In this document: positions 1 to 64,000 of the stretch, in pieces
Numbering within the stretch: position 1 is the stretch's first letter
Layout: every line of letters begins with the position of its first letter
Source of the DNA: Bilabrum cf. latius
Lineage: Eukaryota
Assembly: GCA_965178125.1 (NCBI GenBank)
Contig: OZ237741.1
Coordinates: 1,240,001-1,304,000, forward strand
Direction: 5' to 3'
Length of the DNA stretch: 64,000 nt
Made by a program: the position numbers and the translations under genes
The notes under the pieces: model-generated
Told to the model about the DNA's origin: nothing
The model's database searches: none
The model's input: the letters and a program-made list of their open reading frames with translations, nothing else

Positions 1-1233
1 GCGTCTGCGTGCGCAGCTTTGGCTGCTGCTACTGGTGCTGTTGGTGCTGCTGCAGCTGATGCCGACGTGTCACTTTCCTCACATTCAGGCATTTTGTCGT
101 GCATCTGTCCGTTCTCCTCCTTGACATCCCCCTTGCCGCTCCCGTTGGCTGCACCCCCTGTCTTGCTACTGCCTGCATCCCCGACCTTGCCCCCCCTCTC
201 CCTTTCTCTCTACCCAACCTCTAGTATCACTCCACTGTGGCCCGTGACAGCATCAAGCTGCCTCTGCAGCCTCGCCACCTCGTGCAGTGCACCCACCAGC
301 TGGGCCTGCGCGGCCTCCGCCTCTCCCCTAGCCGATTGTACCAGCCTTTCCTGTCTCCGCCTCGCCTTTTCACTGGCCTGCGCGTTGCTTTCCCACGCCT
401 CTGTGGCAGCCAGGAGCAGCCGCAGGGTCTGCATGCGCCACGCTTCCTGCCTGTGCCTGTCGCCCATCGCTGTCGCTGCATAGTGTAAGATGCAGGAGTA
501 ACCACTAGGCTTGAGAAAGTACCGAGATAAGCAGGAGTAAACTACAAAAGACAAAGAGGCCATACATACGCGAAAAAGGCAAACACAGATCACATGGTGG
601 TTGCAGGCAGAACACGCGCGGGGCATCAAAGGCCTACCAGTGCCAGTGGTACTGCGCATCATGATCCAGTGGCCTGGTCTCACCGATGGTCTCCCTCGAG
701 AGCTGCATGCACAGAGCGCGGACACCCTGGGTCCACTGCATGGCACGGTCGTGCATCGCTGTGCTTCCCGAGCCAGCCGACGATTGCGAGGCTCTGGAGA
801 CAGCTGAGTAGCTGGGATGGGCTGGAGCTCCAGCTGGTGGGAGCTACGGTGGCACGGGTGGCGTGCTGCCAGTGGCAGTGCCGCCAACTTGCGGCTGCTG
901 GACCTCTTTACGGTATCGTCTGCCTGCCTGCCCCATTCCAAGCATTGGATTCACGTGCAACTTTTCCATTCTACCCGCCTGCGGACTTGAGGACCTTGAG
1001 GCCGAGTGGCTGGGTCCTGGAGATGGCAAGTTGCTTGGTGGGGCGGACGATGCTACAAAGTCGCCCGAAGCACGCCTGCGGCGATTGAGTGGCCTATCAA
1101 TCTTCATGTTGGGACGATCCGCACCAAGGTGTGCCGCTTCCATAGCCCTAGTCCTAGCAGTCCTCTCGTGAGTCTTCCGAGCACGCAAAGCACCCGTCTA
1201 CACATCTGATTTTCCTCTCGAATGCTGCATCAT
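1..1233 (-). CDS. Hypothetical low-complexity/coiled-coil protein, 3' end runs off the window
   Basis: ATG at 1233. The frame is open through TAG at 1198 and 844. A phase-1 intron (donor GTGAGA at 683 or GTATGT at 569, acceptor TGCAG at 476) joins a coiled-coil-like frame (EKARRRQERLVQSARGEAEAAQAQL) that reads through TAG 210 to the window edge. Confidence 0.55.
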
Positions 1234-1420
1234 TCTTGTTAGCCGACGCTATAGTGAGTGAAGAGATGTATCACTGGGGGTTTCCATCAAAAGAAATTCT
1301 GCGTAGCACAGGTAGGGGCTAAGATTTTCGCATTTGCTGATGTTATATAACCGCACGCAACCATATACCTGCGAAATACGGATTCACATCTCATCACAAA
1401 GCTGTCAACCTTATTGCCTA
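1234..1420. promoter_or_regulatory. Short bidirectional promoter region
   Basis: 187-bp AT-richer gap between divergent ATGs at 1233(-) and 1421(+). Confidence 0.45.
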
Positions 1421-1849
1421 ATGGCATCCATACTTCGCAGAATAGCTTCACGGTGTCCTAGACAGCCACTAAAGGTAACCCGGTGGTCATGCCGCTGCAT
1501 CACCACATAGACGCCAGGTGAGCTGCATCTACCTGGAGTTGCAGCGAACGGGGACTACTTATCTGTGACAGTCCGAGTAAAGCCACGCTCGTCTTGTTCT
1601 AGAGTTTCAATAAATGATGCGCTTGGAGTTATTGATATTTGTGTAAAAGAGGAACCCGTGCGGAACAGGGCCAATGATGCCGTGATGAAAGCAGTTGCTC
1701 GTCTGTGCGGCGTGCCAAAGGAGGACGTTGTCTTGATGAGGGGAGCATCGTGTAGGATCAAAACTTTTCGTGTAAATCAGGATCCTGATCGGTGTATCAA
1801 GAAGATCGCCAGCAAGCTGAAGGGAAGAGACAGCCTTTCTAGAATTTGA
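1421..1849 (+). CDS. DUF167/YggU (UPF0235)-like protein with Arg-rich transit-peptide-like leader
   Basis: Unspliced frame from ATG 1421 through TAG 1508 gives LSVTVRVKPRSS...IDICVKEEPVRNRANDAVMKAVARLCGVPKEDVVLMRGASCRIKTF, matching the YggU pattern (V.VKP...PP..G.AN..L...LA..L.VPKS.V.I..G..SR.K). Stop TGA 1847-1849. Confidence 0.7.
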
Positions 1850-2572
1850 GCAGCAAACCGTGCACCGCAAACTTGGGTTCGTATCGCAGCCAACGACATC
1901 AAATTGAATCAGCTTTTGCAGCATGACGACAAGCTTTGGGTGGTAAGACTTGATTGGAGGGGTGTTTTTTCTGCCTTCGCGTGGTCTTCATCCCCAAATG
2001 CATGAACCAAGCAAGCGAGAGCGTACCCCTTCCTGATCGCACAGGTGCGCAAGAGGGAACATGTTAAGCCAGGTAAGGGAGGGGCGTACGTATAGCTAGA
2101 GCTGCAGTCCCTGCGCGGCGACACGAAGACGAACCAGCGGGTCCGCTCCACGGAGACTCTCTCCACGGTCGAGTACGACCAGCGAGCCACATATACGGTC
2201 CTGTACCAAGAGGACCCGGGGGGCGGCATGGACCCCGTCGTGGTGCTCATGCACGAGGAGACCTTCGAGCAGGTGGAGGTGCCCGGGTCCCTGTTTGGAG
2301 GGGACGGTGCGCACCGTTTCGCGCACGACGGGATGCCTGTGATCCTTGGTACGCACGAGGGCGAGGTGGTGCACGTGGACATGCCCAAGATTGGAGAGTA
2401 CGAGGTGGATTTTGCCCCCGAGGTGAGGTCAGACACGAGGGATAAGCAGCCCACCAGGCAGGTCCGGCTGTAGAACGGTGTGACGATTGCCAGGGTCCCG
2501 GCTCACGTGGTGAAGGGAGACAGGGTGCGGATCCACATCGAGGAGAGGAGGTTCGTGGAAAAAGTCAAGTGA
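1421..2572 (+). CDS. efp: Elongation factor P (bacterial/alphaproteobacterial type), probably mitochondrion-targeted; predicted exons 1421-1517, 1854-1942, 2045-2572
   Basis: Spliced product reads RIAANDIKLNQLLQHDDKLWV|VRKREHVKPGKGGAYV[TAG]LELQSL...EETFEQVEV...RQVRL[TAG]NGVTIARVPAHVVKGDRVRIHIEERRFVEKVK-TGA, which carries the EF-P PGKG loop and C-terminal OB-fold motifs. Intron 1943-2044 is GTAAGA..CACAG. The first exon/intron (AG|GTGAGC 1518 to CAG 1853) is inferred. The N-terminus is Arg-rich and lacks acidic residues. Confidence 0.85.
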
Positions 2573-3330: not shown

Positions 3331-6300
3331 ATGCGACGTGACAGACTGCTGAAGAGGAGTAGAGCCAGAAGCGCTGGGCGTGCAATGGCAGAATCCCGGT
3401 CCCCTCGCGGAATCGCTGCATCTTTGAGGAAGCCAGACGCCAAGAGCGACCGCCTCCACGATGTTGACCATCTCCATAGCATTGTCTTGTATTTGCAAGA
3501 AAGTAAACGTGATTTGGAGGAGCAGCTTCGCAAGAGCAACGAGAGAGGCGACGCAGCTGAGACACGCGCCAGCGAAGCTGATGCAAAGCGGGAAGCCATT
3601 GAAGAGCGCTTGTAGTCGTCTCAAGCCCGCGAGTTGTCTCTGAAAGCGGAAATGCAGGTTAGTTGGGTAATGGAGCAACGTGCGTGCGCTGCAAGGTGTC
3701 AAACGGCAACACAGCTTGACACGCGCACTGTTTGCTATTTAAGGCGCACTATCAATCTTTGTTCGCAGGAGTTACGTTCTGTGCATGATAAAACGTTGTT
3801 CGAGCTGCACCGATAGCTAGGACAGTTGTAGACTGAGCGAGATGAGCTTGCATCGCGATATGAACAAGCAAGTTCATCACAGTCACAGAAAGCCACTACC
3901 ACAGCGCAGTAAGGAGTCCATTGGGCATCGATCTTATTTTACCACCACTCGATTTCAGCGAAGGGGCGCCGCATGTGCCTCTACCTTTCCGTATTCCGCA
4001 GGTTGGAGCAGGAGCGCAAGGTTCTGCTGGCATACGCAGCCGACTTAGAGGAGCAGATTGACGCTTCGCAGCAGAACCAGGTTCAATATGAGCGAAACAC
4101 TGGGGTTTTGCGCATGATGCAGGTGCTGCTGAAGCAGCATCAGGCCGCGGGCAGGGCGGCTCTAAACCGGTGGCGCAGCTTTGCCCTCCATGGTCAGGCC
4201 GGTGACGCATCGCAGCGGGCGCAGCAGGAGCTCGCCAATGCGCAACGCGAGTTGGAATCGAGTAGAAGGAATCTAATTGCTTCCTAGGCTCGCATTTAGT
4301 CGCTGGAAAAGCGCCTGCAGGACGCGAGAGCCCAGCTTGCAGACGCTGACCTCCGTGCAGGACGAGCAGAAGCAGACGCGAGTTCAACAAGACACCGCAT
4401 GCAGGAGGCGGTGTTGACGGCGAGCCGCATGAAGCAAACGCTACGAAATGCAAGCGAGCTTGCCCAGTCTCTGTCTCCCAAGGCAGCAGCGATGTCCGCC
4501 TCTGTGCGACTGGACGCACCCGCCAGCGGTCGCACACCTCTGGTTCGCTCTAGGCTCTCTGCATCGTCCAGCAGCACAGGCAGCGCTTCTAATGCTGATT
4601 TAGAGATGATTGCAGGCGGTACAACCCGAAGTTTGGCGGCGGCGCTGGGCAGGGACGGTGCTGGCGACGATTCAGAGAATGTCCGCGTGGCTGCCGGCCA
4701 GAGTGATCCCGCTCCAACCGCACGCGTAACTGCGCCGTCTCCAACACGATGGGCCGGCGGCGGGTCCGCGCTGGCCGTGCGTTCCAATGGAGAAGCAGCG
4801 CGCTCGCCTGTGGGGGGAGGCCGTGCATTTTCTCCCGCCGCTACGCCAGTGCCCGCAACCAACCATGCACACGACGCCACTGCCGGTGAGCCCATCAGCC
4901 TCGAAGCTGTCGCCACAAGCCTGGCAGAATCCCTCAGCGGAGAGCAAGCGAGGGCAGAAGCGGCGCGAATCGCGCTGCAGGATGCCCGCACCCTCGCTGA
5001 AGAGGCACAGCGCGAGGCACGGCGCTGGAGAGACGCGCACGACCGCAAGGAGATGGCGCTTGCCCGCAGCGAGGCGTCCTTCGAGAAATCGTCGGACGCG
5101 CAGACCTCTCTCCTGCGAGTGCTTGCTGTCCTAAGGGACACGCTGCCCCAGGGGCGCGCCGAGATCGACTCGGCGATTCAGGCCGCGGCGGTGGTGGCCA
5201 AAGACGTGGCAGAGGCAGAGGCGGAGAGGGACGATACGGCAGGCGCCGCTGGGGCGACCGGGAGCACGAGCACCGACGGCAAGGGGAAGTCCTCCGAACC
5301 AGAGCCCCCCAAATCCGGCCTGCAGCTGCTCGAGGAGCTGGCCCGAGGTGCCACGAAGGTGCAGCAGGTCAGGTCCACCCACGGCGCGCGCATGGCGGCC
5401 GAGCTGCGGCACAGGCTTACAGAGTGCCGCGAGGATCTGGCCGCGGCGAGGGAGGCGGAGGATCGCGTGGTCAAGGCCAGGGGGTCGATCCAGGCCGCGC
5501 TCCAGCGGGCGCAGGACCGCGCGGATGCATCGGACCGCCGCGCCCGCCGGCTGGAGGAGGAGGCGGAGGGGCTGCGCGTGCGGTCCCAGGGGCTCGAGGA
5601 AGAGCTACAGGCGAGGGAGGACGCGCTGCGCTTGCTTGAGGAGCGCGCTGAGGAGGCAGACAGGAACGTGCAGGCGCTGCAGCAGGCCGCGAGGGCAAGG
5701 TCTCTGCAGGAGGGCGCGGCCGAGTCGAGGGCAGACAGGCTGGAGGCGGAGCTTGTGGCCGAGCGGGCCATGCGAGGCGCGGGGTCCGACGGTGCATCGC
5801 GAGAAGGCGGGGCTGCGGCGGGGTCGGATGATGCGCGAGTCCATGCAGCGGTGCAGTCGGCGGCCGTGGCGCGCGCAGAGCTGGACGAGCTGCGCGCGAA
5901 ATCAGCCCTGCTAGAGCAGCAGGCGCGATCGGCCGAGCGGGAGAGAGATCAGGCTTAGTCCAGGCTGAAGTCGGTTCGGTCCGAACTGGAGGAGGCGAGG
6001 CGCCAGGGGCAAGAGCGCCTGGAGGCGGTCCGTGGAGACCTCGCGGATGCGGAGGCAAAGGCAGACGAGGCCAAGGCCGTGGCGGCGGGTGCTCGGCACT
6101 CGCTGCAGGTGGAGAGGCGGGCTCGGGTATCCGCCGAGGAGGAGGCGGAGGGTGCCATGCAGCAGGCTAGAGAGGAAGTGGCGCTGGAGATGGAGACCCG
6201 CGCGGAGGAAGCCGAGCTGCGGGCCAAGCAGGCGGAGCGAAGGGCGAGCCAGGCCCAGGACAAGGCCCATGCACTGAAGGAGCAGCTGTCGAACGCCAAA

Positions 6301-9300
6301 AAAGAGGTGGATGACGTGGTGCAGGCGCTGGAGGAGGAGGTGCAGGACGCTGCAGGGGAACGGGACGAAGCCATCGAGCAAGTTAAGCAAGCAGACGAGG
6401 CCAGGGACGAAGCTGTGCGAGAGGCGCGGCAAGCAGAAGAGCTGCTGGCACAGGCTCGCAAGGAGTTGGAGCAGCAGGCACTGGTTCGCGGTGAGGCCGA
6501 GGACTCTTTAAAGAGGGCCAAGAAGGAGCTCAATGATGCGCAGGCGCAGCTGCAGGCCAAGCGCACCGAGGCCGAGGAGCTGTCGAGCACCGCCAAAGAG
6601 CTCAGGGCCGCGGTGGAGGCAGCCGAGGCGCGGGCCGTGGCAGCTGGCCGCGAGGTGGAAGAGCTTCAGGAACGCGCGGCAAGGCTCGATACCGAAGCTA
6701 AGAGCAGCCGCAAGGAGCTCGAGTCCGAGCACGAGGCTCTGGAAGCGGCCCGCGCTCAGCTGCAAGAGGCCAAGGACGATGCCGGCGCGACCCGCAGCGT
6801 GTGCGATGAGGCTGTGGCGGAGCAGCACAGGCTCGAGGAGGTGGTTTTCTAGCTGAAGGAGCAGGTAGAGGCGCTGCAGAAGCAGGTCAAGGACCAGAGC
6901 GAGGCGGCCTTGCAGGAAGCAGATGCGGCGCAGAGCGGCAAGGCTTCGAGTCCTTTGGGCGGCGCTGCCCTGCAGGATGCGGAGGAACGGCTGGAGGCGG
7001 CTCGAGAGCAGCTGGACACAGCCAGACAAGCAGCGAGAGAGGCCGAGGACCGGGCGCAGCAGGCCACTTCGAGGGCCACCGACCTGCAGGCACAGCTATT
7101 CGCGAGATCCTCCGAGGTGGAGGACCTGAAGCAGCGCCTGCAGACAGAGCAGGAGGACAGGGCCGCCACGGTGGTGGCTGCTGCCAGCGCGCGCGCCGCC
7201 GAGCAGGAGAGTCGGGAGGCGATCGACAGGGCGGAGCAGGCCCTCCGCTCCGAGCTGCGGAGGAGAGCAGAAGCGATGCAGCGGCTGGGGAGGCAGCACA
7301 CCGCAGACGTCTGGCTCGCGCCGCAGCCGATGCCGGGACCCGCAGCTGGTGGTGAAAGCAGCGGCGACCGAGACGCTCCCAGCAGCAGCGGAAGGGACGG
7401 CATCGAGCTGTCGGACGCCGCGCCGCACGAAGACCCGAAGCAAGACGATGCCGCTGCTCGCAGTCGTGCGGAGGCTGATTCCGAAGAGCAGCGACTGCTG
7501 CAAGCAGCTCGGCTCATGGCAGACGCTCAGTCCGGCCCCGCCGCGGCCTCGCACGCCGCCGTGGTCGGCTTCCTCACCACTACCATCCAGACTGGCACCA
7601 AAGACCTGGCCGAGGCACGACAGGCTGGCGCGCGCCTGCAGCGGACCGAGCTCGATCTCCGCCGCCGAGTGCAGTTCCTGGAGACGAGGCAGACCGAGCT
7701 GCAGGCGCACCTCGCCATGGCGATGAAGGAGGTGAGTCAGCTCCAGGGAACAGTGGGGGACTGGAAGGCGCGTGCGGGCAGGGTGGCGGTCGCGATGCTG
7801 CCCGCGGCGCGCGCAGCGGCTCAGGCGGCCGAGGGCATGGCCGAGCGGGCGGTCGCGCTCTCCTCTCCGAGGTCGCAGGGGAGCCAGGCCAGCAGCAGCG
7901 GCGATGGTATGGGCGGCCCGCACACCCCCGATCGATCGGGCAGGCACCCCGGGTCCGACTTGTCGGGTGCGTCCCCGCGGGCCCGTCGCATGGCGGCACA
8001 CGCGCAGGAGGTGCGGTACTGCGTGCAGCAGATGTCGCGCTGGGCGCAGCAGTCAAAGGTGGAGGTATCGGCGGCGGTGTCCTCGGGAGATGAGGCGATG
8101 CTGCAGCTCGACCGCACGGAGCTTGAGGGCACGCCCGGCCTGCTGCTGGCAGAGTCCCGGGGTCGCGCCAGGCACGCCCAAGACGCGTTGGAGCTGTGCG
8201 AGGTCACGGTGCGGGCCATGCAGGACGAGCTGTCGCTGGCGAGAGCCGAGGTCACAAGGCTGACGGAGGACGCGGTGGCCCGGGCCAACCAGGCCAACGA
8301 GCTCCACGCGAGGCTGCGGGATGCGGAGGGTGCCTCCGAGGCGCAAAGGCTGCTGGCGGTGGGTCTGCGGGGACACGCGCAGACCCTCCGGTCGCTGGTG
8401 CCGGAACGAGTGCGGCCGCACCTGCCCCCCAGCCCCCAGCTGCGGCCGCTGGCTGCTTCCCACGCCGAGGCTCTAGAGCAGGCCAGGGAACAAGACAGAG
8501 ATGCGGAGTGCGATGGGCCGGATGACCTGGGCGGAGAAGGGGCCGATGGCAGCCGCAGCACAGCTGCGAGTGGGCGTCAAGCCGGGGGCGAGGGCGAGGG
8601 GGAGGGGGAGGAGGAGGAGGGGGCCACCTTGAGCACTGAGAATTTCTAGCGACCGAGCCATGGGCAGCGCGCGGCAAAGCAGCTGAGCGGTGCATGGGCA
8701 TCTGTGCTGGCCCCTGCGGCAGGCGCGGATGCCTCCCCATCGGCCCCTAGTGCAGCCGCTGACCGGGAGAGCCTGGGCACACCCGCCTCCAACAGCTCTA
8801 CGCCGAGTCGGGCCGCTCCGATTGTGCCCGACGCGATCGACGGCGTGCAGGCTGAGGATCGGGGTCACGGGGCGCAGGAGGAGGACGAGGACGGGGAGTA
8901 GGAGGAAATTCTGGAGCTGGGCCAAGAGCTGGCCCGAAGGATGGGCCCCGAGTAGAGTCACCATGAGGCGGCGAGCGACCGAGGAAGCCGAGCGTTGCCC
9001 GCCTATGGATCCCCTGAATCAGGAATCGCCTACTCACAGCAGCAGCAGCAGCAGCAGCAGCGTGGTGACGAGGACGAGACCGCGCACAATAGGCCAGTCG
9101 TGGCCAGCACGCCTGGCAGGACGCCACGACTCGAATCCCCCGCTGATACGCCGCAATCAGCCATCGTGACAGAGCCAGTGCTAGGCCCGGTTCCACCAGC
9201 CGGTAGGGCAGGGACCGGGACGGGGACAGAGGCTGCGGCCATCGGTCACCAGGACGACGACGTCTCAAGCGGTGACTAGCGGATAATTGATCATGGTGTG

Positions 9301-10221
9301 CGCGCAAGGCTGCCCCTTGCACGCGATTCAACGGACACATGGAGCTCTGACAGTACGACAGATTCAATTTCCGCCCCCGGGGTCAACTCGGGGTCGGGAT
9401 CGGGATCAGGGTCAGGATCGGGGCCCACCCCTGGCTCCACTGGGCAGGAGTCCCCTCCCGAGGCTCCCGTGCGGGTGGCTCTGCCGGCGCTGGATACCGC
9501 GAGCGGTTCTGGTTCTGGTTCTGGCTCTAGTTCTGGCTTCAGCAACAGAGGGTCGGGCTCTGGGCATGGCCGGGCATCGTTATTGTCGACAGCCACTGCA
9601 GCAGCGCCGGAGCCTCGCAGCATCCTGAGAGGCTCCCCTAGCTTCATCGCCTAGCGGCAGCAGCAGATAGGCAAGCAGGGGCTCGGCCAGACGCTGCAGT
9701 CTCCACGGAGCCAAGACGGCAAGGAGCACGAGTGGCCAGATGATTCTGAATATGGGGCTGCCAGCGGCTCGGTGGGGGCTGCGCGGCGGCGGGTGAAGTT
9801 CGACGCTGCTGTGCTCCATGCGGCACAGGACAAGGAGCGGACGGAGACAGAGCTCAATTTCATTAGGATCGAGCGGGAGCAGGAGGAGCAAGAGGAGGGG
9901 GCGCGAGCTGGGCAAGAGCAGTACCGAGGGAAAGGCCAATGGCAAGGGCATGGAAACCACGACTCGGACGCGGAGGGCATCAGCGGGGAGGGGCTGGTGG
10001 AGCTGCTGCAGGGGCTCGACACCGAGGCGGTGCAGCAGCTGCAGGAAGCCGTGCGGGGCAGCGCCGGATCCGGGGATGGTGGAGAGGGGGCGAGTGGCGT
10101 GGATGTGGAGCAGCTGCTCGAGCGAGTGTACGCTTCCATTCGGAGTGCGGGTGGCTCGGGCGAGCGGGAGGAGGGGGAGGGCCTGTTACAGGGCCAGGCC
10201 AAGGCCGAGGGTCCTGGGTGA
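3331..10221 (+). CDS. Giant (~2200 aa) coiled-coil protein; predicted introns 3658-3768 and 3909-4001
   Basis: All E/A/R/Q-rich ORF pieces from 3331 to 10221 lie in one frame. They are separated only by TAG (3613, 3814, 3829, 4285, 4297, 5956, 6850, 8647, 8899, 8953, 9277, 9652). Exon 4002-10221 has no TAA/TGA until the terminal TGA. Start may be 3331 or 3385. Confidence 0.85.
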
Positions 10222-10410: not shown

Positions 10411-11673
10411 ATGCAATTGTCGCATTGGATGAACAAGAATACACATGGATTAATTGCCACTGCCCTTGTCTCAACTTTGGCGTTCGAATTCACCCCCGTC
10501 CATGGTGCCGCCGCAGCTCCGTGCAGAGACCGGTTCTTGGAGCCATTCTTGAACTCTAGCATATGGAACACGGCAATCGGGAGTGCAGCCCAGTACGTAC
10601 CTGCTGGTCTATTCCCAAATGCCAGTGAGGCTCCGAACTCCTTTCACAACGACCAGGATTTCATCGTTCGAGCTACCAGCGATGATCCTCTGTCTGACTG
10701 GATTAGCCAGGGCGATTGGGGCCCGGACCAAAAGTGTGCCATCCAAGGGAAGGGAGACATTGTTGCGCGCATTCCACTGCCGTACGCTTGGACGTCTGCC
10801 TCCGACTGCGACGGGCCACCCAACAACTCGTCGAGCAACTGCAGGTCCAAGGCAGACCAGATGAATAACAACGCGATGGCTTTGCTCCTGCCTGACAACA
10901 AGACACTTGTTCAGATGCAACCGGCCTACAGGTGTGGCTTTGGCAGCCCACTCCTGGCGCGGTGGGGCAACGCGACCGACGGCTGTCCCTAGAGATTTCC
11001 TAACGTCACGAGCATCTTCGGCGATGGCACGTACGGGGCACACGGCGGGTCTGGCCTGTCCAGCATGGGCGGATCTATCCGCCTCGGGGAGCTGCTTCCC
11101 ACCGCCGGCCCCATCTAGCACGCCCTCAAGCTGGAGCTGAACAACAAGTGGTACTACGGGGGGTCTCAGCTGAACCCCCCTACACCGTACAACGGGGCCC
11201 GCACCCAGTACGTGTGGCCGGCCACGGGAAGTAACGCGGGCTACCCCGGATCGGCCTACACGGGTACCAATAGGTACGTCGCCCCCGGGGCGCTGCTGGC
11301 CATCCCGCCCGCGCTGGCGCCTGGGGTCAAGACCAGCACGGTGGTGGGGGCCAAGATCAAGCAGGCTCTCGTGGACTACGGGGGCTACATCGTGGACGGC
11401 TCCGGGCCCCAGCAGCTGCCGCCCAGCAGACAAACGGCCGCCGTGTGCATGGACGCGCTTGTGAATGCCGAGATGAGGAGGGCTTTTGGGTATGCGATGA
11501 CGTACCCTGCCGGGGTGTCGGCGGGGGATGCTCCTGGAGCGGGCAAGGAGCTGTACGAGGACCTGCTGGCCATCTATAGGGCTTTGCATGCGGTCGTGAA
11601 CAATGCCCCGGGGTCGGTGGGGGGTGGAGGTACCCCCCGTGTCCCCACCAAGGGGCCCATCTGCGGGGAGTGA
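10411..11673 (+). CDS. Intronless secreted protein resembling a bacterial uncharacterised family
   Basis: Signal-peptide-like N-terminus. Motifs RDRFLEPFLNSSIWNTAIG, GAHGGSGLSSMGGSIRLGELLP..GPI[TAG]HALKLEL, VWPA, GALLAIPP and ALVDYGGYIVD. In-frame TAG at 10990 and 11116, TGA stop. Start 10411 or 10429. Confidence 0.75.
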
Positions 11674-53497: not shown

Positions 53498-55057
53498 TCA
53501 CTTGTGGACCGATGACATGTGTTTGTTGAGATTGCTTGCCTCCCCGAAGCGCTTGCCGCACACAATGCACTCGTGCTTGCGCTCCCCATGGTGCACAGTG
53601 CTCATGTGCGTCCTGAGATTGCCTGCTGCCCCGAAGCGCTTGCCGCACACGATGCACTCGTGCTTGCGCTCCCCCAGGTGCACAGTGCTCATGTGCGTCT
53701 TGAGATTGCCCGCCTGACCGAAGCGCTTGCCGCACTCGATGCACTCGTGCTTGCGCTCCCCCAGGTGCACAGTGCTCATGTGCGTCTTGAGACTGCTCGC
53801 CTCCCCGAAGCGCTTGCCGCACACAATGCACTCGTGCTTGCGCTCCCCCAGATGCACAGTGCCCATGTGCTTCTTGAGACTGCCTGCCACCCCGAAGCGC
53901 TTGCCGCACACGCTGCACTCGTGCTTGCGCTCCCCCAGGTGCACAGTGCTCATGTGCCTCCTGAGACTGCCTGCCACCCCGAAGCGCTTGCCGCACACGC
54001 TGCACTCGTGCTTGCGCTCCCCATGGTGCACAGTGCTCATGTGCGTCCGGAGATGGCCTGCCAGCCCGAAGCGCTTGCCGCACACAATGCACTCGTGATT
54101 GCGCTCCCCACGGTGCACAGTGCTCATGTGCGTCCTGAGATGGCCTGCCACCCCGAAGCGCTTGCCGCACACGATGCACTCGTGATTGCGCTCCCCCAGG
54201 TGCACAGTGCCCATGTGCTTCCTGAGACTGCCTGCTGCTCCGAAGCGCTTGCCGCACACGCTGCACTCGTGATTGCGCTCCCCCAGATGCACAGTGCTCA
54301 TGTGCATCTTGAGACTGCCTGCCGCCCCGAAGCTCTGGCCGCACACGCTGCATTCGTGCTTGCGCTCCCCATGGTGCACAGTGCTCATGTGCCTCTTGAG
54401 ATGGCCCGCCACCCCGAAGCGCTTGCCGCACACGCTGCACTCGTGCTTGCGCTCCCCCAGATGCACAGTGCTCATGTGCGTCCGGAGATTGCTTGCCTCC
54501 CCGAAGCGCTTGCCGCACACGCTGCACTCGTGATTGCGCTCTCCTCGGTGCACCACAGACACATGCTGATGAAGCGCCCGTGCACTCGACAGCACCTTAC
54601 CACACACCTCGCATCCATGTCCCCTACTCCTACTGCCAGCCATCGATGCTCCCACCCTCCTTCTCTTGCTGCCCGAGGCAGGCTACGGACAGTCTGCCAC
54701 AGCTCCAGCATCCATGGGTTGCTTCGATGTGGCACGTGCCCGCTTCTGCCCCACGATACCTCTGCAGCTACTTGTGCCGACTGATTCGAATGCCGATGAA
54801 GATGACCCTCCGGCAGCCGAAGCTGATCCTGCCAGTGCGCTTGACGATGCTGACTCGATCGATTGGCAAGTGCCTTGCCCGCCCATGGATCCCAGCACTC
54901 TGCTTCCTGCGCTCGGGCCTGAAGCAGAACAGCCATCGTCAGCAGTCGTCACGGATACAGCAAGGTCATCTTCCTGACGATCCTCCTCCTCGCTATCGCT
55001 GCTGTCGCTGACCAGGTCAATCACGTCATCAGGGCCTGGTCTTGCCACGGATGACAT
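53498..55057 (-). CDS. C2H2 zinc-finger protein with 13 tandem fingers (29-aa/87-bp units)
   Basis: MSSVARPGPDDVIDLVSDSSDSEEED..., TAG 54683 read through, then repeated HEC.VCGKRFG.A..L..HMSTVH.GERK. TGA stop. Confidence 0.92.
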
Positions 55058-55409
55058 CGCTCTCTCCACCACGCAGGATCGTCAATGGAAGTCCAGGACA
55101 ACCTCCAAGCAAGCTGGAGGGCACTGATGGAGGAATCGGGAGAAAAAGCAGAGAAAGCAATGAGCAACAGTCTGATGGCCTGGTGTCAGCAGCTCGGCAC
55201 CCCTGACAGTATCCGCAGCTCAGTCACCGCAGTGTGATGCTCCACGATGCACGCCCAACCGGCTCAGGAAGACCCAAGGGAGCGCAACGAAGTGTTTCTG
55301 ACGAGTTGGAATCGATGCGGTGCTTTGGTTCCGCTGACCAAAGGCGCCGCGCAGTGCCGAAAATTGCAATGGAACGCAGTCATCCACCCACACGCACCCT
55401 ACTCCCCAG

Positions 55410-58400
55410 TCAGAATCCCTTCTCGAACCAAACCTCAAACTCGTCGTCATCCTCTGCCTCCCCCGCCGAAATCACGCTCGTCTCCAACGGCCCCTCGCCC
55501 GCCAGCGCCTCCACCTCGTCCGCCCCTGCCCCTGCCCCCGCCCCTGCCCCCGCCCCGGCATGCTACAGCGCAGCCAGCAGCGCCCGCCTGCCCACCGCCT
55601 GCACCCCTCCGCCGTCTCCTGCCCCTGCCCCTGCCCCTGCGACGCCCCCCACCGCCCCGCCCTCCAGCTCCCCCTCGGGCTGGCACACCCACACCTTCCA
55701 CCGCCACCGCCCCCCCTCTCCCTCTCCCTCTCCCTCTCCCCCCTAGGCATCCTCACCCTCCTCCCGCACCACGGCCCCCGTCACCAGGCACATGCTCTCC
55801 CCGCCCCCTGCCTCGGGGCACAGGTCCTCCCAGTCGTAGTTGGACAGGATCTCGGCGCACAGGCCCTGGCCACCACCCGTCCCATCGCTCGCACTGGCCC
55901 GCACTGCCACCAGCAACGGACGCCTGCACAGTGCACCAGCCGCACCACCGTCCCATCCAGCACCAGCACCAGCACCAGCACCAGCACCGTCCTCTCCGAA
56001 GGCCATCGCAGCCCCCGACACGTGCTCCTGCTCTTGTTCCCTGGGCGCCATCGGCGGCTCCTCGCTGCCCTCCTCCACCTCCATCCCCGCTCCTACCTCC
56101 CCATCCACGAAGCCACCCCCCGTGCGGTCCACTCCCAGCCCCATCCCCAGCCCCAGCCCTGACCCGCTCCTGCCCAGAGCTCCCAGCTCAAGAGGCTTCG
56201 AGGGGGACACGGACAGCCCACCGCCCACAGCGCCAGACGAACCCAGGGATGACATGCCGGGCACCGCCCGACGCCCGCTGTCCGCAGAGCTGCCCGCCAC
56301 ACCGATCCCGATCCCGCCCAGGCCCAGCCCAGGCACCCCGTCCCTGGCCGTGTCGGGGTTGGTGGACTCCGTGGCCCTGCTGCGGGCCGACTCGCAGCCG
56401 CTCTCGCTGGCAGAGACAGAGACCGAGGTTGGTGTGGGTGACTTCATCACCAGTGGCACAACTACAGGGACTGCACCTGCACCTGCGTGCGATGCACCTG
56501 TCCCTGGCCTGGATCCCCTGGAGGTCCGTCTGGTTGACCCCTAGGTGGGGGCAGGGCCCCCGGTGCTCCTCCCGGGGGTGCTGGGGACAGAGGCCTCCGA
56601 CCTCGAGGTGCTGGGCTGAGAGGCAGAGGCAGAGGTGGAAGAGGATGAGGGAACAAGGGACACGCACCGCTCAAGGACCGCTGCAGGGCGGTACAGTCGA
56701 GGGCCCGAGGGCGGGGTGCCGTGGGACACCAGCCCGGGGTCTTCCTCTGGCCCAAGGCTACGGAGCTGCACGGGACCCAGGGCAGGCGAGCGAGGGGCAT
56801 GGGCACCAGCTGCCTCGAGGGAGAGGGAGACAGCGGACCGCTGCTGCTGCTGCTGCTGCTGCTCGCCCCCTGTTTCCTCGGACGCCTCGAATCCCTCTGG
56901 CCCCAGCAGGCCGGCTCGCTCCACGGCCGCCCAGAGCCCCTGCAACGCCATGCCCAGCACCTGCACCCCGGCGCGGTGGCGGGTCGACACGCCCTCGGGT
57001 GCCTGCCAGGCCACTTGCAGGCTGGGCAGGCTCGCTGGCTCCGGAGCAGGGGCACGCGCAGTGCCAGATCCCCATGTATTCTCTACTCCTCTCCCATTGT
57101 GCCCGGGCTGCGCCTCCTCCTCCCCCTCTCGCTCCTGTCGCGCTGCTGCGGCTCCAAAGAGACTCGACACCTTGTCCTTTGCCTCCCCAATCCCATCCCC
57201 ATCCCCTTCACCGTCTCTGATCGCCTAGCCACTCCCAGCAGAGGCCCCTGACCCGCCCATAGCCGTGCCCCCGCTGGTGCTCCCGCCGCTGAGGGGGGGC
57301 GGCACTGCGACAGGCACGATTGAGTCCGTGGATCCTCCCGGGACATCGATCTCGTCCAGGGCTCCCTGCCCCTCGAGCTCTCGGGCCAGGTGGTGCATGT
57401 CGCCATCCTCCCCCTCCCCCTCCTCGCCGCTTCGATTGCTCTCCTTGGAGTACTTTGAGGAGGAGTCCGGGGAGAACCGGAGGGACTGCCCGATGCGGCC
57501 CCTGGCCTGCGAACCTGTCCTCGACTTGGGAGTAGACTCAAGGGCGCCCGGGAGCTGGGCGGGGTACGCGTCGCTGTCGTTGGGCAACAAGTCCGTGGGA
57601 CCTACCCTGCTGATGGGGTTGGACAGAGAGGACGAGGACTGGTGCTCCGTGAGGGCGTTGCTGCCCCTGCCCATGCCCCTGCCACTGGCCCCCTCGGTAC
57701 CTGCGCTCGTGCTCCTGGCAAGAGCACCTGCGCCAAGTTCACCCCCTTCCCCGCTCTGTTTCTCCCTGGAAGATGCGAGGTCCAGCGCGTGCCCCCACCC
57801 GGGCTATGCCAGCCTCTCCCACGCCCCCATGTCCCTCCTCGCCGCCCTCTCGATCTCAGCCGCCTCCTCCGCATCTCTCACGCTCTCGGGTAGGACCAGC
57901 CAGGCTTGTGCCGGGAGGAAGGCAGCGCCCTCCATGGCGTGCTCAAGGGGATGGGAGCCATCCTCTAGATCGCCCGCGGCCCCATCTCCTTGCAGCAGTG
58001 GTGCCACCTGCACCCCGCCTGCGCTAGACCTCCGTCCACCGCTCGCGGGAGAAGAATCCCACTTGCTGTTGGCCACATCACGCGGAGAGGGCAGCAACAG
58101 CAGCAACGCTCGGGGTGCAGGGGGCCCCTTGGCCCCACCCACCGCCGCGTCCTTGCAGAAATCGGACCCGGGGGCCCGCAGGTCCGCCGGCAGGTGCATC
58201 GCCAGCCGCGCCTTGCCTCCGCCGCTGCTCATCGGCCGACTCCGCCGGCGTCGGCTGCTGCCCCCACTACTGCCCCCGCCCCCGCCCCTGCTCTTTGTTG
58301 GTGAAGAGCCCGGTGTGCTGCCCCCAGGTGCATTGTGGCCCCCTGTGATGGAGGGGTGCGCCGGGAGGCAGTGCCTCGACTCTCCGTACCGCAGCAAAGA

Positions 58401-60357
58401 GGCACTGTAGTAGGGCCTGGAGACGGACCCGTGGGGGCCGGGGGACAACACCGTGCTGGGCCATGCACCCTCGCTCCTCGGTGTCTGCGTCAGGGCAGGC
58501 ACTCGGGCCGGCGTGCGATCGGAGGGAGAGGTGGCCGTGCCTCCCGCCACCACCGCGCCTCTGGGAGTCGTCACTTCCCCGGTACTGGGCCCGGCCAGTG
58601 ATGCTGATGCTGATGCTGCGTCGAGGGCCACGCTGGCCGGATCATGAGTACTCCTCACACCTGGTGCGGCCGTCGACGGCATGGTGACGCCTGATCCATC
58701 GGCTCTGCTAGCACCAGCCGCGGCCGCACAAGCCCCTCCGTGTCCCCCGTGTCCCGGCCCCACGCTTGCACGCAGCCTCCCCCCCGCATCTCTCATCACC
58801 GAGGCGGGCACGCGACTGGCACCCAGCAGCACCTCGGGTCCCATGGGACCCGCGAGCCCCTGCAGCTCCAGGCTGCCCCCCGCCGCAGGCCAGTGCCCCG
58901 AGCAGAGCGGCCTCCATGCCCGGCGGAAATACCCAAACACGAGGCCGCAGGCAGGGATACGGCCGGGGTACGCAGCCTCGAATGCGCCGAGTCCACTGAA
59001 GTGCGAGTTCGCTCTGTGTTCTTGATCAGCAGCATCATCGGCACCGGCGCCGTCACCAGAACGAGCACCAGGACCAGAGCTGCCGCTGCTCGCTCGACCT
59101 GCCGCCCTCCTCCCGCTGGCTCTGGCCCTGCCGGGCACGGGGCCCATGGCACGCAGTCGGCTCTCCCAATCTAGCAGCTGCCCAAAGAAAGCGGGATTCG
59201 GAGACACGATCCCACGGGAGTCCCGGATGAGCTGGAGGGCGTCCCTGGCCCCCATGCCCCTGATCCACATGGCCGAGGCAACAGCGATGGCGCCGCTGCG
59301 GGAGACGCCCTGGTGGCAGTGCACCAGGGCGCGGCTGGGGAGAGAAATAGTGCCCGCGCGGGTGCCGTCCCGGCTGGCTTCGGACGGACGCCGCCTGCCA
59401 CTGCCGGCGGCGGCGGTCGCTGCGGCGGAGCAAGCGAGCAGCTGCACGGCAGCCGGCAGCAGGCTAGCGACTTCCTGGCTCGGGCTATCTTGCAGCCACA
59501 GAGTCAGGTAGGGAAGTTGGAGACTAGAATTCTTATCCTTTTGTCCAGGTGAACTGCCAATCGTGGCCTGACCCGTCGCCTACGTATCCGCTGCGAAGGG
59601 GCACTGGCAAACCTGCGGAGCGCAGTTGATCACTGCTCCCACACTTGCCTGGCGAACGAAGTCAGGGTTCACGGTAGGCTGCTAGCCGGACACGCACAAA
59701 TGTGGTAAGACTGGCGTGATTTCCCCCCCAAATCGCAGGATGCGCTGCTCGCGAGCACGTTGTTCGGTGATCAGAATACCGTCGGCGTCGGCTTCTCCTA
59801 CCCGCGAGGTGAGAGCGTTCTAGCCAGGGTCCCAAGAGGCATCGTGACTTCTCGACGTGCCTTTGTCCGCCCCGAGACCCAGGCGATTCTTTGCCGCATC
59901 AATGGGCAAGACTGGCAGAACAGGTCCTTTCCGGCGCGTTTCATGAGTCATGCCGTCCGCTCTTGTCGGCATTTGCTCCGCATAGGACGATGCGGATGGT
60001 TCTATGGACTACCCTAGCTCCAAGTCTATGCCGTGAGACCTCTCTGGCGCCTCACTATTCGCGAGCTCAGGCAGCCTCGGAGCAGCTCCCGACTTGGTCG
60101 CCGCCGCCTGTGGTGCCGGTGCTTGCGCACCGCTTGACCCCCCAGTGGACGATTCTGTACTACCAATAGATTCATTCTGCAAGACATAATTCCATTCGAA
60201 GCTCGGTATAGCAAAAGGTGCGACACGTATGACAACAGTAGGGCAAACACAAGTAGCCAGCCGTTGAAGTGCTCGCAAGGTTCACTTCTAGCTGTCTCAC
60301 CGATTCGTTTTCCTCTGAGCCCCCACAATCAAATAGCGAAGCAATCCAGCTTCCCAT
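55410..60357 (-). CDS. Dual-specificity protein phosphatase (MKP-like) with long low-complexity tail; intron 60177-60300
   Basis: ITPVLPHLCVSG, VINCA, YLTLWLQDSPSQ, VHCHQGVSRS (CX5R) and SPNPAFFGQL. N-terminal MGSWIASLFDC. One frame with TAG at 60009, 59820, 59682, 59580, 57804, 57225, 56541, 55743 and 55563; TGA stop. Confidence 0.88.
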
Positions 60358-60677: not shown

Positions 60678-61818
60678 TCAGCCCACGCCAAGCGGCGCGT
60701 GGTCTAGCAGCACCACCACCGCGGTCAAGTCGTCGTGGGGCGCCCCCCGCGCCTTCCAAGCCTCCGCCGCCGCAGCGCACACTGCCTGCGCCGCCGCCGC
60801 GGCAAGCCTCTGTTTCTGCCTCACCCTTGCCTGCAGCACATCGCTAGACAGCAGCCGCTCCCTCAGGTCCGCGGCCCCGCTCACGGGCGTAGTCACCCTG
60901 GCCAGCGCGCTCCGGGCCGCAGCCCTGGCCTTGCGTGCAGCACCCCTTCTCCTGCCTCTGCCAGGCCTGCCCTTCAAGTTGCTGGCGGTGCCCCCCGCCT
61001 TCGTTTCGCCCCAGTGCATCTGCTTCATGCCCCCCCCACGAGCCGACGTGCCCGAAGGTGCTTGTCTGCGCCCAGCCCCAGCCATCACCCCCGCCCCCGC
61101 CCCCGCCCCCGCCCCCTTCCTTCCCGCCATCCCGAGCAACCCCCCCTCGATGCCGCCGCCTGCCGCCCCCAGGCTCGAAACGCCGCTGCGCCGCTGGCCA
61201 GCCACGCTCCGACGCACCACCCTCCCTTCCTCGTCCAAGCCCAGGTCCAGCTGCCCAGTGCCCTCCTCCTCCTTCCCCTCCAGCTCCGATCGGTGCTTCT
61301 CCTCCGCGGTCATCCCATGCCTCAGGGCCCGGAGGGTGGCAGTGCTCAGCGAGTGCAACAGAGACGAGGCAGTCGCGCTGCCGTGCAGTGCACCCGACCG
61401 CAGGCTGGCAGCAGAGGCGGAGCCGCGGAGGGTGCTCGCCCCATCTCCCCGCGTTTCCCCGTGTGTTCCCCCGTGCTTGGCCCGGGCGCGCTCCGCCCCC
61501 ACCGCCACTGCCGCTTTGAAGGCCACTTCGCCCTCATCCTCCCGCACCCTCCCTCCCCCCGCACCCGCCACGGGCTCTGCATCCGCAAAGGCAAGCAGAC
61601 GGAGCTCCTTCACGCCTCCATCCGTGCTTGCCACTGAGCCATTAGACCCGGCGGCCACCATACCTAGGGCCCCGACTGCACCCGCAGGGGCTGTTGAAGT
61701 GGAGGCCGGCGTCGCTCGCAGCGTGGGCTCAATCGCCAGCGGCACCTCGGCTGGCCTCGACCCCGCCCCCCTGGCGAAAGCGGCGTGCTTCCGGCGAGTC
61801 CTGCCGTATGATGCACCA

Positions 61819-61855
<37 letters not shown>

Positions 61856-64000
61856 CCAATCCCCTGCCCTCGTCACCTTGAGCCCCGCCCCTGTCGCTGC
61901 CCCGAGCCGAAGCGCCGCCAGTGTCCGCCTGCTTGCCCGCAGATCCGCCGTCCAGTGCAGCCGCGATGGCCTGCCCCGCCACTGCCACCGCCTGCGCCGA
62001 GGAAATGGCGCCGAACACGCCGTCAGTAGCGAGCAGCAGGAACGTGTCCGCGCGAGCGATGTGACGAGTGACGCACTCCGCGTGCGGAACCACCCCCACT
62101 AGCTTGCCTTGCCCGAACCCCAGGCCACGGGATAGGGCCAGGCCGGGGCCCAGCTCACCGGGAGCTCCAGAGAACACGCGGGGCACCAGCCCGCGGGTGC
62201 CATCGTCGAACCGCATGCACTCCACCCGCCCCCCCGCCGCCACCAGCCGCTTGCGCTCGTCTGGCCTGCCCGGGCGATGGTCCAGCGTCAGCGGGGTTGC
62301 CACTACGGAACCTCCCCGGCGCCGCGCAGCCTCCTCCTCGAACCTCCGCGCCCTCTCCAGCGCTGCCTCGAATCGTTGAAGCACAGCCTCCCGGGCGACC
62401 GACCTCTGCACGCGCAGCTGGTGCCTCGCGGAGAGGTCTGGTACCAGGGCACCGCTTGTTCCCTGGGCCTCTTCAACCCCACCGGGTGCAGGCGCGGCCC
62501 CCGCCGCCCCCCGCAGCATCTGCACCACCTGCTCCACCCCAGCGGCGGTGACCCCACCCTCCCCTCCGCCGACACCCCCCCCCCCATGGCCCGTCCCAGG
62601 CCGACTCAGGGGCCTGCCATCCTCGTCGTGGTACCGCAGTGACCGAGCCACGGCAGGCGGCACCGCGGGAAACTCGGGGAAACTCACGCTGCCCTCTGTC
62701 CGCCTACCCCACCCATCTGATGCTGCGCCCCCTTGACCGTGCCTGCCACCGCCACCCGTTGACGACGGGCGCGAGCTGATGGCAGCCTCTCCAAGCACGG
62801 TCATGGCCGTCTCGCCCAGCAGCTTCTGCGGCTCCACGCCCAGCCCTGTCGATCGACCCACCCCCGACAGGCCGGTGGACCCTCTGGAGCTCCCCGATGG
62901 ATCGACGGTACCGCCAGCACCTGCATGCAATGCACCCGCACCCACACCCCGCCCCTGCATCTTCCTCCTCCTCGCAGCGTCCATGCCCCCCTGCATGCGC
63001 CTGAGCAGGCCCGCGGGAAGTGTGGCCGCAAGATCCAGGGGCCTCTGCCCGGCCAGTGCAGCCAGCGTGTCAGCGGTCCGCGCCGCGCTGCGCGCCCTTG
63101 CCACCGATGAGCTGAAGGCAGGCGCGAGGGAGGCATCCCCCCGCGCCCCCGCCACGCACCTGCACGAGCCCACGTGCGCCACCACGACGGTGTGGCCCCT
63201 GACCAGCAGAAGACAGGCCGACGCCCCCGACATGGAGAGAACAGCGGGGCCCAGCTGCTCGAGCAGCTGCTCATCCACGCGCTCGAACGCCCGCCGCATC
63301 GTCTGCCGGCACCGCTCGCTCCACTGGGCCAGGGCTTTGGCTTGTTCCCTGAGGATCCGCTTCTTCTCGGCCGCGCTCGTGTCATGGCTGGCCTGCCGGA
63401 TGCGGGCCGCGCTCGCCTCCTCGGTCCCTACCTAATCTGGGTCTGTGCTGCCTCCAGTGGCAGTGGCAGTGGCAGAGCCGGTGCCGGGCTTGGCCCCCTG
63501 CTGCTGGCCCGCGGGAGCACCTTCCCGCTGGCCGACGGGGCCACCCGGATTCGTCCCCCCGCCGCTGGATCCGCCCCTGGATTTCAAAATGGCCCGCAGC
63601 GCGCCCTCGTTCGCCTGCCTCGAGCCCGGCTTGACGAGCCTCGCGGAGCTGGAGGACGACGTCGCTGGGCGAGAGCTCGCCGCTGAGCCGGAGGCTGCCT
63701 TATTCGGTTTCTTTTTCAGCCGTCGTTTCTTTCGGCGCTTGCATACACGCAGAAGTGGATCTTTTGTCATTATATCTGCCAATGCAGTCGGCAGCAGCTG
63801 GGCTACACGGCCAGCCACGGCACCGCCCTCCGGCCCGTGCCCATCGATCACGGCCGCCAGCAGCTGACCCGCCGCACCAAGAAAATTCTCGATCACAAGC
63901 ACCCTATCGGACGAGGGTTCACCCCCGAGGAAGCTTGGTTCTCGCAGTGCGCCTGGCACCGAGGCGCACGACCAAGGCAGGCGAGGTGCGCGATTCCTCG
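60678..64000 (-). CDS. PP2C/PPM-family phosphatase with large insertions, 5' end outside the window
   Basis: IDGHGPEG, SGASACLLLV, AHVGSCRCV, LTLDHRP...ERKRL..AGGRV, GLALSRGLG, FLLLATDGVF and DDLTAVVV. TAG at 63432; TGA stop. Confidence 0.9.

Follow-up and report, generated by a model that had tools for sequence, protein, structure and literature searches.

UAG very probably read as glutamine, with UAA and UGA kept as stops, in GC-rich nuclear DNA of a likely relative of Cafeteria

The window, by which we mean the whole 64 kb stretch of DNA that was analysed, is rich in GC (62%) and poor in introns, and codons ending in A are rare in it (CAA/CAG = 0.247). Conservative modelling yielded 18 definable genes with 18 gene ends (Table 1). 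The spliced frame of the MRT4 gene starts with MPKSKR, the usual MRT4 start, and the exon at 14996..15270, named by eye from its translation without a search, presumably encodes a ribosomal protein resembling eL43/L37a.

Table 1. Genes and other features of the window, with in-frame TAG codons (start coordinates where so marked) and terminators.
Feature	Position	Strand	Basis	In-frame TAG	Stop	Remarks
DUF167/YggU-domain gene end	1511..1849	+	Pfam PF02594	0	TGA	
EF-P homologue	2006..2572	+	Pfam EFP_N, EFP, Elong-fact-P_C	2093, 2471	TGA	last exon or whole ORF
Coiled-coil protein	4002..10221	+		4285, 4297, 5956, 6850, 8647, 8899, 8953, 9277, 9652	TGA	~2072 codons
Gene without Pfam family	10411..11673	+		10990, 11116	TGA	missing from syntenic L001
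MRT4 exon 2	11803..12546	-	Pfam Ribosomal_L10, RL10P_insert	12486, 12282 (starts)	TAA (11803-11805)	
MRT4 intron	12549..12654	-	GT..AG on minus strand; X7 joint 12548 to 12655 (CT..AC on plus strand)			106 nt
Acyl-CoA thioesterase (4HBT)	12927..14657	+	Pfam, alignment A4	12963, 12972, 12999, 13023, 13029, 13767, 14049	TGA	
Presumed eL43/L37a-like ribosomal protein, exon 2	14996..15270	-		none	TGA	intron 15271-15382
Repeat-rich protein	15895..19494	-		19398, 19338, 18252, 18087, 17616, 16773, 16614, 16002 (starts)	TAA	
ALG11 mannosyltransferase	19854..21875	+	Pfam ALG11_N, alignment A2, tree	19986, 20004	TGA	
Cofilin/ADF-domain protein	22368..23294	-		none	TGA	
Myb-domain protein	24077..26850	-		26470, 26167, 25234 (starts)	TAA	
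LRR + IQ protein	28429..31959	-		29670, 29544, 28761, 28608, 28509 (starts)	TAA	
1655-codon protein	32124..37091	+		12: 32142, 32715, 32751, 33423, 33879, 34416, 35172, 35217, 36459, 36531, 36570, 36792	TGA	
PAN + GH116 glycosidase	40621..44088	-		42219, 40722 (starts)	TGA	
GH3 glycosidase	46299..48757	-		48731-48733 (exon 2)	TGA	exons 46299-48300 and 48398-48757, limits approximate
C2H2 zinc-finger array	53498..55060	-		54685 (start)	TGA	
Dual-specificity phosphatase-domain protein	55410..60281	-		9: 60011, 59822, 59684, 59582, 57806, 57227, 56543, 55745, 55565	TGA	
PP2C phosphatase	60678..63998	-		63434 (start)	TGA	5' end beyond window

The 14,829 codons of these models contain 66 TAG, no TAA and no TGA in frame, the two zeros being partly built in because TAA and TGA delimited the open reading frames. 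At least one in-frame TAG occurs in 14 of the 18 genes, conserved ones included; the initial annotation had put the number at about 75 in nearly all genes, and the pattern stands, with a lower count under conservative models. Its individual positions hold: both EF-P sites (2093, 2471), nine TAGs in 4002-10221, among them 9652, which adjoins a glutamine run as claimed, twelve in 32124-37091, and the GH3 codon 48731-48733. Over the same stretches the two off-frames together hold 166 TAG, 56 TAA and 440 TGA, a density from which about 83 TAG and about 248 TAA plus TGA would be expected in frame without avoidance. The models end at TGA in 14 cases and at TAA in four, and none requires TAG as its terminator; the earlier count was 16 TGA and four TAA ends (20 in all). 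Reading TAG as sense gives seven open reading frames of at least 1000 amino acids, against two with TGA as sense and none under the standard code; at a threshold of at least 500 amino acids the order is 30 (TGA sense), 22 (TAG sense) and 10 (standard code), and because TGA as sense lengthens frames too, length alone is no proof in GC-rich DNA.

Contigs from four sequencing runs, belonging to four studies, match the window with no differing letter. Two of the runs, X5 and X7, are taken to be RNA because of their splice joints and a poly(A) end, the run records themselves giving RNA only as a guess. The X7 contigs 11811-12548 (MRT4) and 12811-14273 (thioesterase) keep two and seven TAGs, respectively, without a single other letter, and the X7 splice joints 12548/12655 and 15270/15383 are bounded by GT..AG on the gene strand, which reads CT..AC on the plus strand. 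From X5, contigs cover 4002-8487 and 8630-10137 of the coiled-coil gene and 12808-14278 of the thioesterase gene, again with no other letter, and a further contig (10404-11767) spans the gene at 10411..11673; the X5 contigs are transcript-shaped, a loose poly-T end places a poly(A) site near 14815, and both runs are ungapped at the TAG sites. Depth is greatest, over the stretch compared, at the eL43/L37a-like locus (1716 in X5, 339 in X7). TAG is therefore kept in the spliced X7 contigs rather than lost from the message, a loss that the initial annotation had named as grounds for dropping its reading.

Two metagenome contigs, L001 and L002, are syntenic with the window and carry 37 TAG, no TAA and no TGA in frame over 3,113 codons; the ortholog of the coiled-coil gene alone (L001, 4965-11690, minus strand) has 30 TAGs. 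Divergence between the window and L001 amounts to pN 0.11-0.40 and pS 0.71-0.77. The genes are real, with assignable Pfam families, and under purifying selection, and the UAG change is older than the split between the two lineages, synonymous sites in L001 being saturated. UAG makes up about 9% of glutamine codons in the window and about 23% in L001. The possibility that TAG is not translated as such, whether through mistakes of sequencing or assembly, decay of the genes into pseudogenes, U-to-C editing of the RNA or very small introns that keep the frame, has a practically negligible probability: nothing was found in its favour, and it is opposed by the agreement of contigs from four studies' runs with the window, by the retention of ungapped TAG in spliced contigs (if X5 and X7 are RNA), by selection on the genes and by the same use of TAG in an independent relative.

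If UAA were also a glutamine codon, as in codes of the NCBI table 6 type, its absence from 64 kb could reflect mere rarity, given a 62% GC content and the scarcity of A-ending codons, and UAR codons are usually reassigned as a pair (PMC5304391, PMC11687900). Scaled by the window CAA/CAG ratio of 0.247, however, this reading predicts about 16 in-frame TAAs in the window; for L001 the expected number is 15.8, and neither sequence has a single one. All four TAA gene ends are followed by more in-frame TAA 2-19 codons downstream and by sequence that looks non-coding, GC content drops to 0.45-0.52 after three of them (0.61 after the Myb gene), and related MRT4 proteins end where the window has its MRT4 TAA. 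That both UAR codons mean glutamine is accordingly very unlikely, and the conclusion that UAA still terminates is supported over the 64 kb and 18 gene ends covered. So is the same conclusion for UGA, which is absent in frame against 440 occurrences in the two off-frames and closes 14 of the 18 genes.

Condylostoma and Blastocrithidia have context-dependent codes, in which a codon may be stop or sense. A similar ambiguity of UAG, glutamine within genes and terminator near some 3' ends, would escape our DNA-based models, which read through any TAG acting as a stop, and several genes do have a TAG 32-50 codons ahead of their TGA or TAA (GH116 at 40722, the repeat-rich frame orf15895 at 16002, the dual-specificity phosphatase gene at 55565). 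Against this stand the TGA or TAA found at all 18 ends, with TAG needed at none (many genes ending at TAG being another finding that was to count against the initial reading), and the L001 coiled-coil gene, in which a TAG lies about 70 codons ahead of the terminator and the sequence beyond it is still conserved with the window. We regard such ambiguity as unlikely.

Orthologous sites indicate what UAG encodes. Where flanking identity is at least 66%, the partner of TAG is CAG or CAA in 10 of 10 cases, and glutamine makes up 3.9% of residues there; leucine, serine or any other non-glutamine partner occurs at none of the ten. L001 and L002 differ at one of 6,349 bases, and this difference is a CAG/TAG exchange in the essential MRT4 gene. 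The conserved EF-P glutamine claimed for TAG 2093 is borne out, 31 of the 34 residues in that column being Q (35 rows, one gap); the same does not hold at 2471, where the column reads D 11, E 10, T 5, S 3, A 2, H 1 and C 1, with no Q. In MRT4 (alignment A1), P0002 has Q at both window TAG sites, and P0001 and P0003 have Q at the one site that lies within their sequence; outside the closest relatives, the first site is R in 14 of 18. The thioesterase protein P0387 has Q at 12972 and 12999. Both ALG11 columns (19986 and 20004, alignment A2) are variable. For GH3, whose TAG had been placed at the conserved Q of an EKxxQ motif, PDB alignments begin at exon residue 40, and the 49 N-terminal amino acids used as a query matched nothing. 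Once the closest relatives are set aside, the majority of TAG columns either vary, and so carry no information, or lean towards a residue other than Q.

Some sites bear on whether UAG might instead specify Glu, Lys, Ser, Leu or Tyr. Among near-identical relatives, the thioesterase protein P0385, at 95% identity, carries E at site 13767 and K at site 14049, and P0235 (97% identical) has D at the EF-P site 2471, so that of five TAG sites visible in relatives at 95-97% identity two are Q and three are E, K or D; such non-Q cases are inflated because protein calls made under the standard code hide shared TAGs and leave only pairs in which the codon differs. Moreover, a single base change leads from TAG to an E or K codon, and both residues often replace Q where a site is unconstrained. 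UAG has become Ser, Leu or Glu in other lineages (PMC11687900). The absence of any non-glutamine partner in conserved context, the CAG/TAG polymorphism as the sole L001/L002 difference and the EF-P column at 2093 nonetheless make another residue extremely unlikely. The initial proposal that TAG is glutamine while TAA and TGA remain stops is upheld by these ortholog pairs and polymorphism together with the EF-P column and the P0387 sites, and TAG columns are mostly Gln in close relatives, not mostly another residue.

The host was described at the outset as stramenopile-like, and two genes agree. In a maximum-likelihood tree of ALG11, built from 22 rows picked from top hits, the window groups with (P0117, (P0118, Cafeteria roenbergensis)) at support 99/96, and P0387 clusters with Cafeteria roenbergensis proteins at 90% identity. 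Judged from these two sequences, the host is most likely a stramenopile that has the bicosoecid Cafeteria, a marine flagellate, as a relative.

Both UAR codons encode glutamine (NCBI table 6) in many ciliates, ulvophytes, Hexamita, Streblomastix and Amoeboaphelidium protococcarum. The window resembles these codes in the capture of a stop for glutamine and in the interchangeability of TAG and CAG, but TAA is not sense in it (0 against ~16 expected; four TAA ends). UAG alone means leucine in the rhizarian exLh and one ciliate lineage, and serine in Scotinosphaera. There, too, a nuclear UAG is uncoupled from UAA; the amino acid, however, is another one, since Leu or Ser is the partner at 0 of 10 conserved ortholog sites in the window. 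A code in which UAG means glutamine while UAA and UGA stay stops (NCBI table 15 type) is a rare kind of change, already known in other lineages: PMC11687900 names Iotanema spirale (Fornicata), Protocruzia tuzeti and two phyllopharyngean ciliate lineages, which share the code of the window and the same expected CUA-tRNA mechanism. The window differs from them in belonging to a probable Cafeteria-related stramenopile with 62% GC, few introns and TGA as the main stop. Code 15, with TAG as glutamine, is also used by crAss-like phages (PMC9523058), where it serves to recode late genes in bacteria, whereas the window comes from the nucleus of a cellular organism that has spliceosomal introns.

As nuclear DNA from a eukaryote rich in GC and poor in introns, likely related to Cafeteria, the window very probably uses UAG as an ordinary glutamine codon and UAA and UGA as stops. 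UAG would be decoded by a tRNA-Gln with anticodon CUA, one base from the CUG isoacceptor that is expected to dominate in a CAG-rich genome, and eRF1 would lack recognition of UAG; UAA would have been left out of the reassignment because a CUA anticodon cannot read it, a rationale that follows the discussion in PMC11687900. Neither the window nor L001/L002 yielded a tRNA gene, and no eRF1 gene lies in the window. The change would be genome-wide and of independent origin. We lean slightly towards an old, clade-wide UAG-to-Gln change in a lineage of Cafeteria-related stramenopiles to which at least the window and L001, themselves deeply diverged, would belong. If so, GC pressure and a glutamine codon pool dominated by CAG may have allowed a copy of tRNA-Gln(CUG) to change its anticodon to CUA and take over UAG without UAA. 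The literature searches turned up no stramenopile case of this code. Among stramenopiles it would then be the first change of a nuclear code. The host organism appears in runs of several studies and may therefore be culturable, which could make it a system for studying how eRF1 drops UAG yet keeps UAA.

The 64-kb window has a G+C content of 62% and carries genes of eukaryotic nuclear type with few introns; Pfam scans of its frames, with TAG read as a residue, identified the products collected in the table, and several long low-complexity or coiled-coil proteins are also encoded. Conservative gene models, from which doubtful ORFs were left out, comprise 18 genes in 19 coding segments (14,829 codons) and contain 66 in-frame TAG codons, with at least one in 14 of the 18 genes, but no in-frame TAA or TGA, a zero that is partly built in because TAA and TGA delimited the ORFs. 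The two off-frames of the same coding stretches hold 166 TAG, 56 TAA and 440 TGA triplets, from which approximately 83 TAG and 248 TAA plus TGA would be expected in frame without avoidance. Thus, TAG is tolerated near its background density, and TAA and TGA are wholly excluded. The initial annotation described the same pattern with slightly higher figures (about 75 TAG and 20 gene ends, against 66 and 18), as it included doubtful ORFs; its two long exons, 4002-10221 and 32124-37091, do contain 9 and 12 TAG, respectively, and neither TAA nor TGA. Reading TAG as sense yields seven ORFs of at least 1000 amino acids, compared with two for TGA and none for the standard code; ORF length alone is weak proof in this composition, since ORFs grow longer under a TGA-sense reading as well. 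ARAGORN detected no tRNA genes in the window or in L001 and L002, two metagenome contigs of a relative, and no Rfam families were found in the window.

Features of the window, with positions and strand where assigned
Feature	Position	Strand	Basis
DUF167 protein			Pfam
EF-P homologue	2006-2572		Pfam
MRT4		minus	Pfam
4HBT acyl-CoA thioesterase			Pfam
ALG11			Pfam
cofilin/ADF-domain protein			Pfam
Myb protein			Pfam
LRR+IQ protein			Pfam
PAN+GH116 glycosidase			Pfam
GH3 glycosidase			Pfam
C2H2 zinc-finger array			Pfam
dual-specificity phosphatase			Pfam
PP2C			Pfam
gene without Pfam family	10411-11673		
presumed eL43/L37a gene	14815-15400	minus	translation
two overlapping frames	27514-28341	plus	
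AT-richer island	36000-40600		
complex tandem array	51097-52169		

The relative's contigs, L001 (11.7 kb) and L002 (6.3 kb), were found by scanning metagenome contigs with MRT4 and are syntenic with window positions 5000-15300, with 67-86% identity of coding DNA. The L001 orthologs of the thioesterase, MRT4 and the coiled-coil gene contain 37 TAG, 0 TAA and 0 TGA in frame in 3,113 codons. Between the window and L001, pS is 0.71-0.77 (saturated) and pN is 0.11-0.40: the excess of pS over pN indicates purifying selection on the TAG-bearing genes in each lineage, and the synonymous saturation an ancient split between the two. The gene without a Pfam family that lies between the coiled-coil gene and MRT4 in the window is missing from L001, where these two neighbours are about 200 bp apart (L001 4757-4965), a single-gene gain or loss. 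AT-rich MRT4 homologues (26-43% GC) at four further metagenome loci (L010, L011, L016 and L020) have both TAA and TAG in frame inside the tblastn matches; they appear to come from ciliate-like organisms that have other stop-codon reassignments and no relation to the window.

Both TAA and TGA appear at gene ends (14 TGA and 4 TAA among the 18 that are definable), in keeping with the earlier proposal that they are still stops. Given a CAA/CAG ratio of 0.247, a TAA with the same meaning as TAG should occur in frame about 16 times in the window and 15.8 times in L001; it is seen in neither. Three further observations do not depend on how the ORFs were delimited. No TAA interrupts the 1,713 columns over which the coiled-coil orthologs can be aligned, in ORFs of about 2,100 and 2,240 codons. 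Each of the four TAA gene ends is followed by more in-frame TAA after 2-19 codons, three of the four have lower downstream GC (0.45-0.52), and the TAA of MRT4 coincides with the ends of the relatives' proteins. UAG may additionally act as a terminator at some gene ends, but none of the genes in the window requires this.

To identify the residue encoded by UAG, three ortholog pairs of the window and L001 were aligned with TAG masked as X, and sites were kept where the six neighbours on each side were at least 66% identical. At 10 of 10 such sites, a TAG in either species lies opposite CAG or CAA, although glutamine accounts for just 3.9% of residues in such conserved contexts; serine and leucine, which were considered as alternative meanings, are the partner at none of the ten and were dropped. 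L001 and L002 differ at 1 base in 6,349, which changes CAG-TAG into TAG-TAG in MRT4; the same dipeptide is TAG-CAG in the window and QQ in a third relative, P0002. In an EF-P family alignment of 35 rows chosen from the best 150 of 823 matches, Q makes up 31 of the 34 residues in the column of TAG 2093, which bears out the earlier description of this site as a conserved glutamine. L001, P0386 and P0387 all have Q opposite the window's thioesterase TAGs 12972 and 12999; P0387 falls into a cluster at 90% identity that includes proteins of Cafeteria roenbergensis. The TAG of the GH3 gene may be, as first proposed, the conserved Q of the 'EKxxQ' motif; PDB alignments stop short of it. Together, the ten ortholog sites, the CAG/TAG change, the EF-P column and the two thioesterase sites support the initial reading of UAG as glutamine.

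Results at other TAG sites run counter to this. The column of EF-P TAG 2471 contains D, E, T and S, Q being absent, and D is also the residue of the 97%-identical fragment P0235; in the thioesterase fragment P0385 (95% identical), E stands opposite TAG 13767 and K opposite TAG 14049; 14 of 18 more distant rows have R at the first MRT4 TAG site; and both ALG11 TAGs fall in variable columns. We read these results as glutamine at what are probably weakly constrained polar sites. PDB alignments of EF-P, with R/V and E opposite its two TAGs, are uninformative, as they involve distant bacterial sequences. The codons GAG (E) and AAG (K) are one base from TAG, and both residues readily exchange with Q. 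These database proteins were predicted with the standard code and hide every site at which the relative also has TAG, so that the pairs that can be seen always involve two different codons. The end of P0385 lies immediately ahead of two adjacent Gln of the window, which would fit a TAG at that point in the relative's gene; P0001, P0235, P0244 and P0385 all look like fragments from standard-code gene calling. Gene callers that use the standard code cut short most genes in this organism and in related ones, and translation table 15 is therefore needed for the clade's assemblies and metagenome bins.

The TAG codons are also present in contigs of sequencing runs and in RNA; their absence from reads or mRNA had been named as a possible refutation. 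Contigs from four public runs of four studies, aligned to window positions 3900-18200, show 0 differing letters. In run X7, joints from 12548 to 12655 and from 15270 to 15383 skip 106 nt and 112 nt; both are CT..AC on the plus strand, i.e. GT..AG on the minus-strand genes, and removal of the first of these two introns leaves MRT4 with its usual MPKSKR start. Contigs of run X5 are transcript-shaped (e.g. 10404-11767, around the gene without a Pfam family), and a loose poly-T end at 14815 marks where a minus-strand gene of very high coverage carries its poly(A) tail. From these joints and this poly(A) end we infer that both runs are RNA, spliced in the case of X7; the run records are silent. Joints with only 20-22 letters on one side at low-complexity sequence (e.g. 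11624/11874 and 8897/9876) were set aside as artefacts. The X7 contigs 11811-12548 and 12811-14273 run gapless and free of differences over the two TAGs of MRT4 and the seven of the thioesterase, which excludes assembly error, complete U-to-C editing and in-frame micro-introns for these genes.

The minus-strand gene ending at the poly(A) site, which we take from its translation to encode ribosomal protein eL43/L37a, has by far the deepest contigs of 3900-18200 (1716 in X5, 339-404 in X7); it contains the 112-nt intron and no TAG. TAG is likewise absent from the cofilin and DUF167 genes, a hint that this rare codon may be shunned in highly expressed genes. A minor, frame-preserving variant of the coiled-coil gene, in which one base at 6620 is omitted and a T is added behind 6623, occurs in X7 (26.5 of 64.5 depth) and X5 (2.4 of 87.1).

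The source of the window is, as a best guess from two genes, a bicosoecid-related stramenopile. A maximum-likelihood tree of ALG11, limited in sampling to 22 rows picked from the best 120 matches, groups the window with two other sequences and Cafeteria roenbergensis (support 99/96), and the best non-trivial matches of the thioesterase include P0387, which clusters with Cafeteria proteins; both agree with the stramenopile-like character noticed at first. An aphelid was also considered, as UAR is reported to encode glutamine in Amoeboaphelidium (PMC5304391, PMC6299283), and was dropped, since TAA still terminates in this genome and the two genes indicate an affinity to Cafeteria. The Cafeteria genome paper reports approximately 70% GC and mentions a non-standard code for the mitochondrion only (10.1101/751586).

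The code of the window is of the NCBI table 15 type, as in Iotanema spirale, Protocruzia tuzeti and two phyllopharyngean ciliate lineages. Nuclear code changes are rare, and decoupling of UAG from UAA is rarer still. 

Reassignment of UAG alone to glutamine is reported for these same lineages in PMC11687900, together with UAG as leucine in one rhizarian and one ciliate and as serine in Scotinosphaera. No nuclear UAG reassignment in a stramenopile, bicosoecid or heterotrophic flagellate was found in full-text searches of a literature collection with few subscription journals, and an earlier report may exist. The window represents an already known code variant in what appears to be a new lineage, common to at least two deeply diverged members and apparently independent of other UAG-only reassignments. 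It most probably arose when one tRNA-Gln(CUG) copy, from the isoacceptor that reads the prevailing CAG codon, had its anticodon changed to CUA: as C34 pairs with G only, such a tRNA would read UAG and not UAA, an argument made in the discussion of PMC11687900. The eRF1 would have lost recognition of UAG and kept that of UAA and UGA. As a further case, this GC-rich, free-living stramenopile would provide a data point outside ciliates on the capture of UAG without UAA, on the way in which eRF1 specificity splits between UAG and UAA, and on a possible influence of base composition on the choice of the stop codon that is lost.

The EF-P homologue, here encoded in a eukaryotic nuclear genome, is of the subfamily in which a conserved Q follows the PGKGGA motif. 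Long N-terminal extensions on several of the homologues nearest to it (alignment A3) suggest organellar targeting, and the N-terminus of the window protein may lie in an upstream exon. The two overlapping plus-strand frames are candidate exons of a small gene; TAG 27541, noted initially for its proximity to CAG, stands beside two CAG codons in the first, and the second (27630-28337) is, by eye, presumably COMM-domain-like. The AT-richer island, between the 32124-37091 gene and GH116 (GC 0.466 in 36001-40000, about 0.62 elsewhere), has no convincing ORF, its single ORF of at least 110 amino acids being low in GC3. The tandem array consists of units of 75, 98, 173 and 248 bp with 77-100% matches. 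Each of its strands has several open frames, and those of the plus strand contain TAG in many repeat units.
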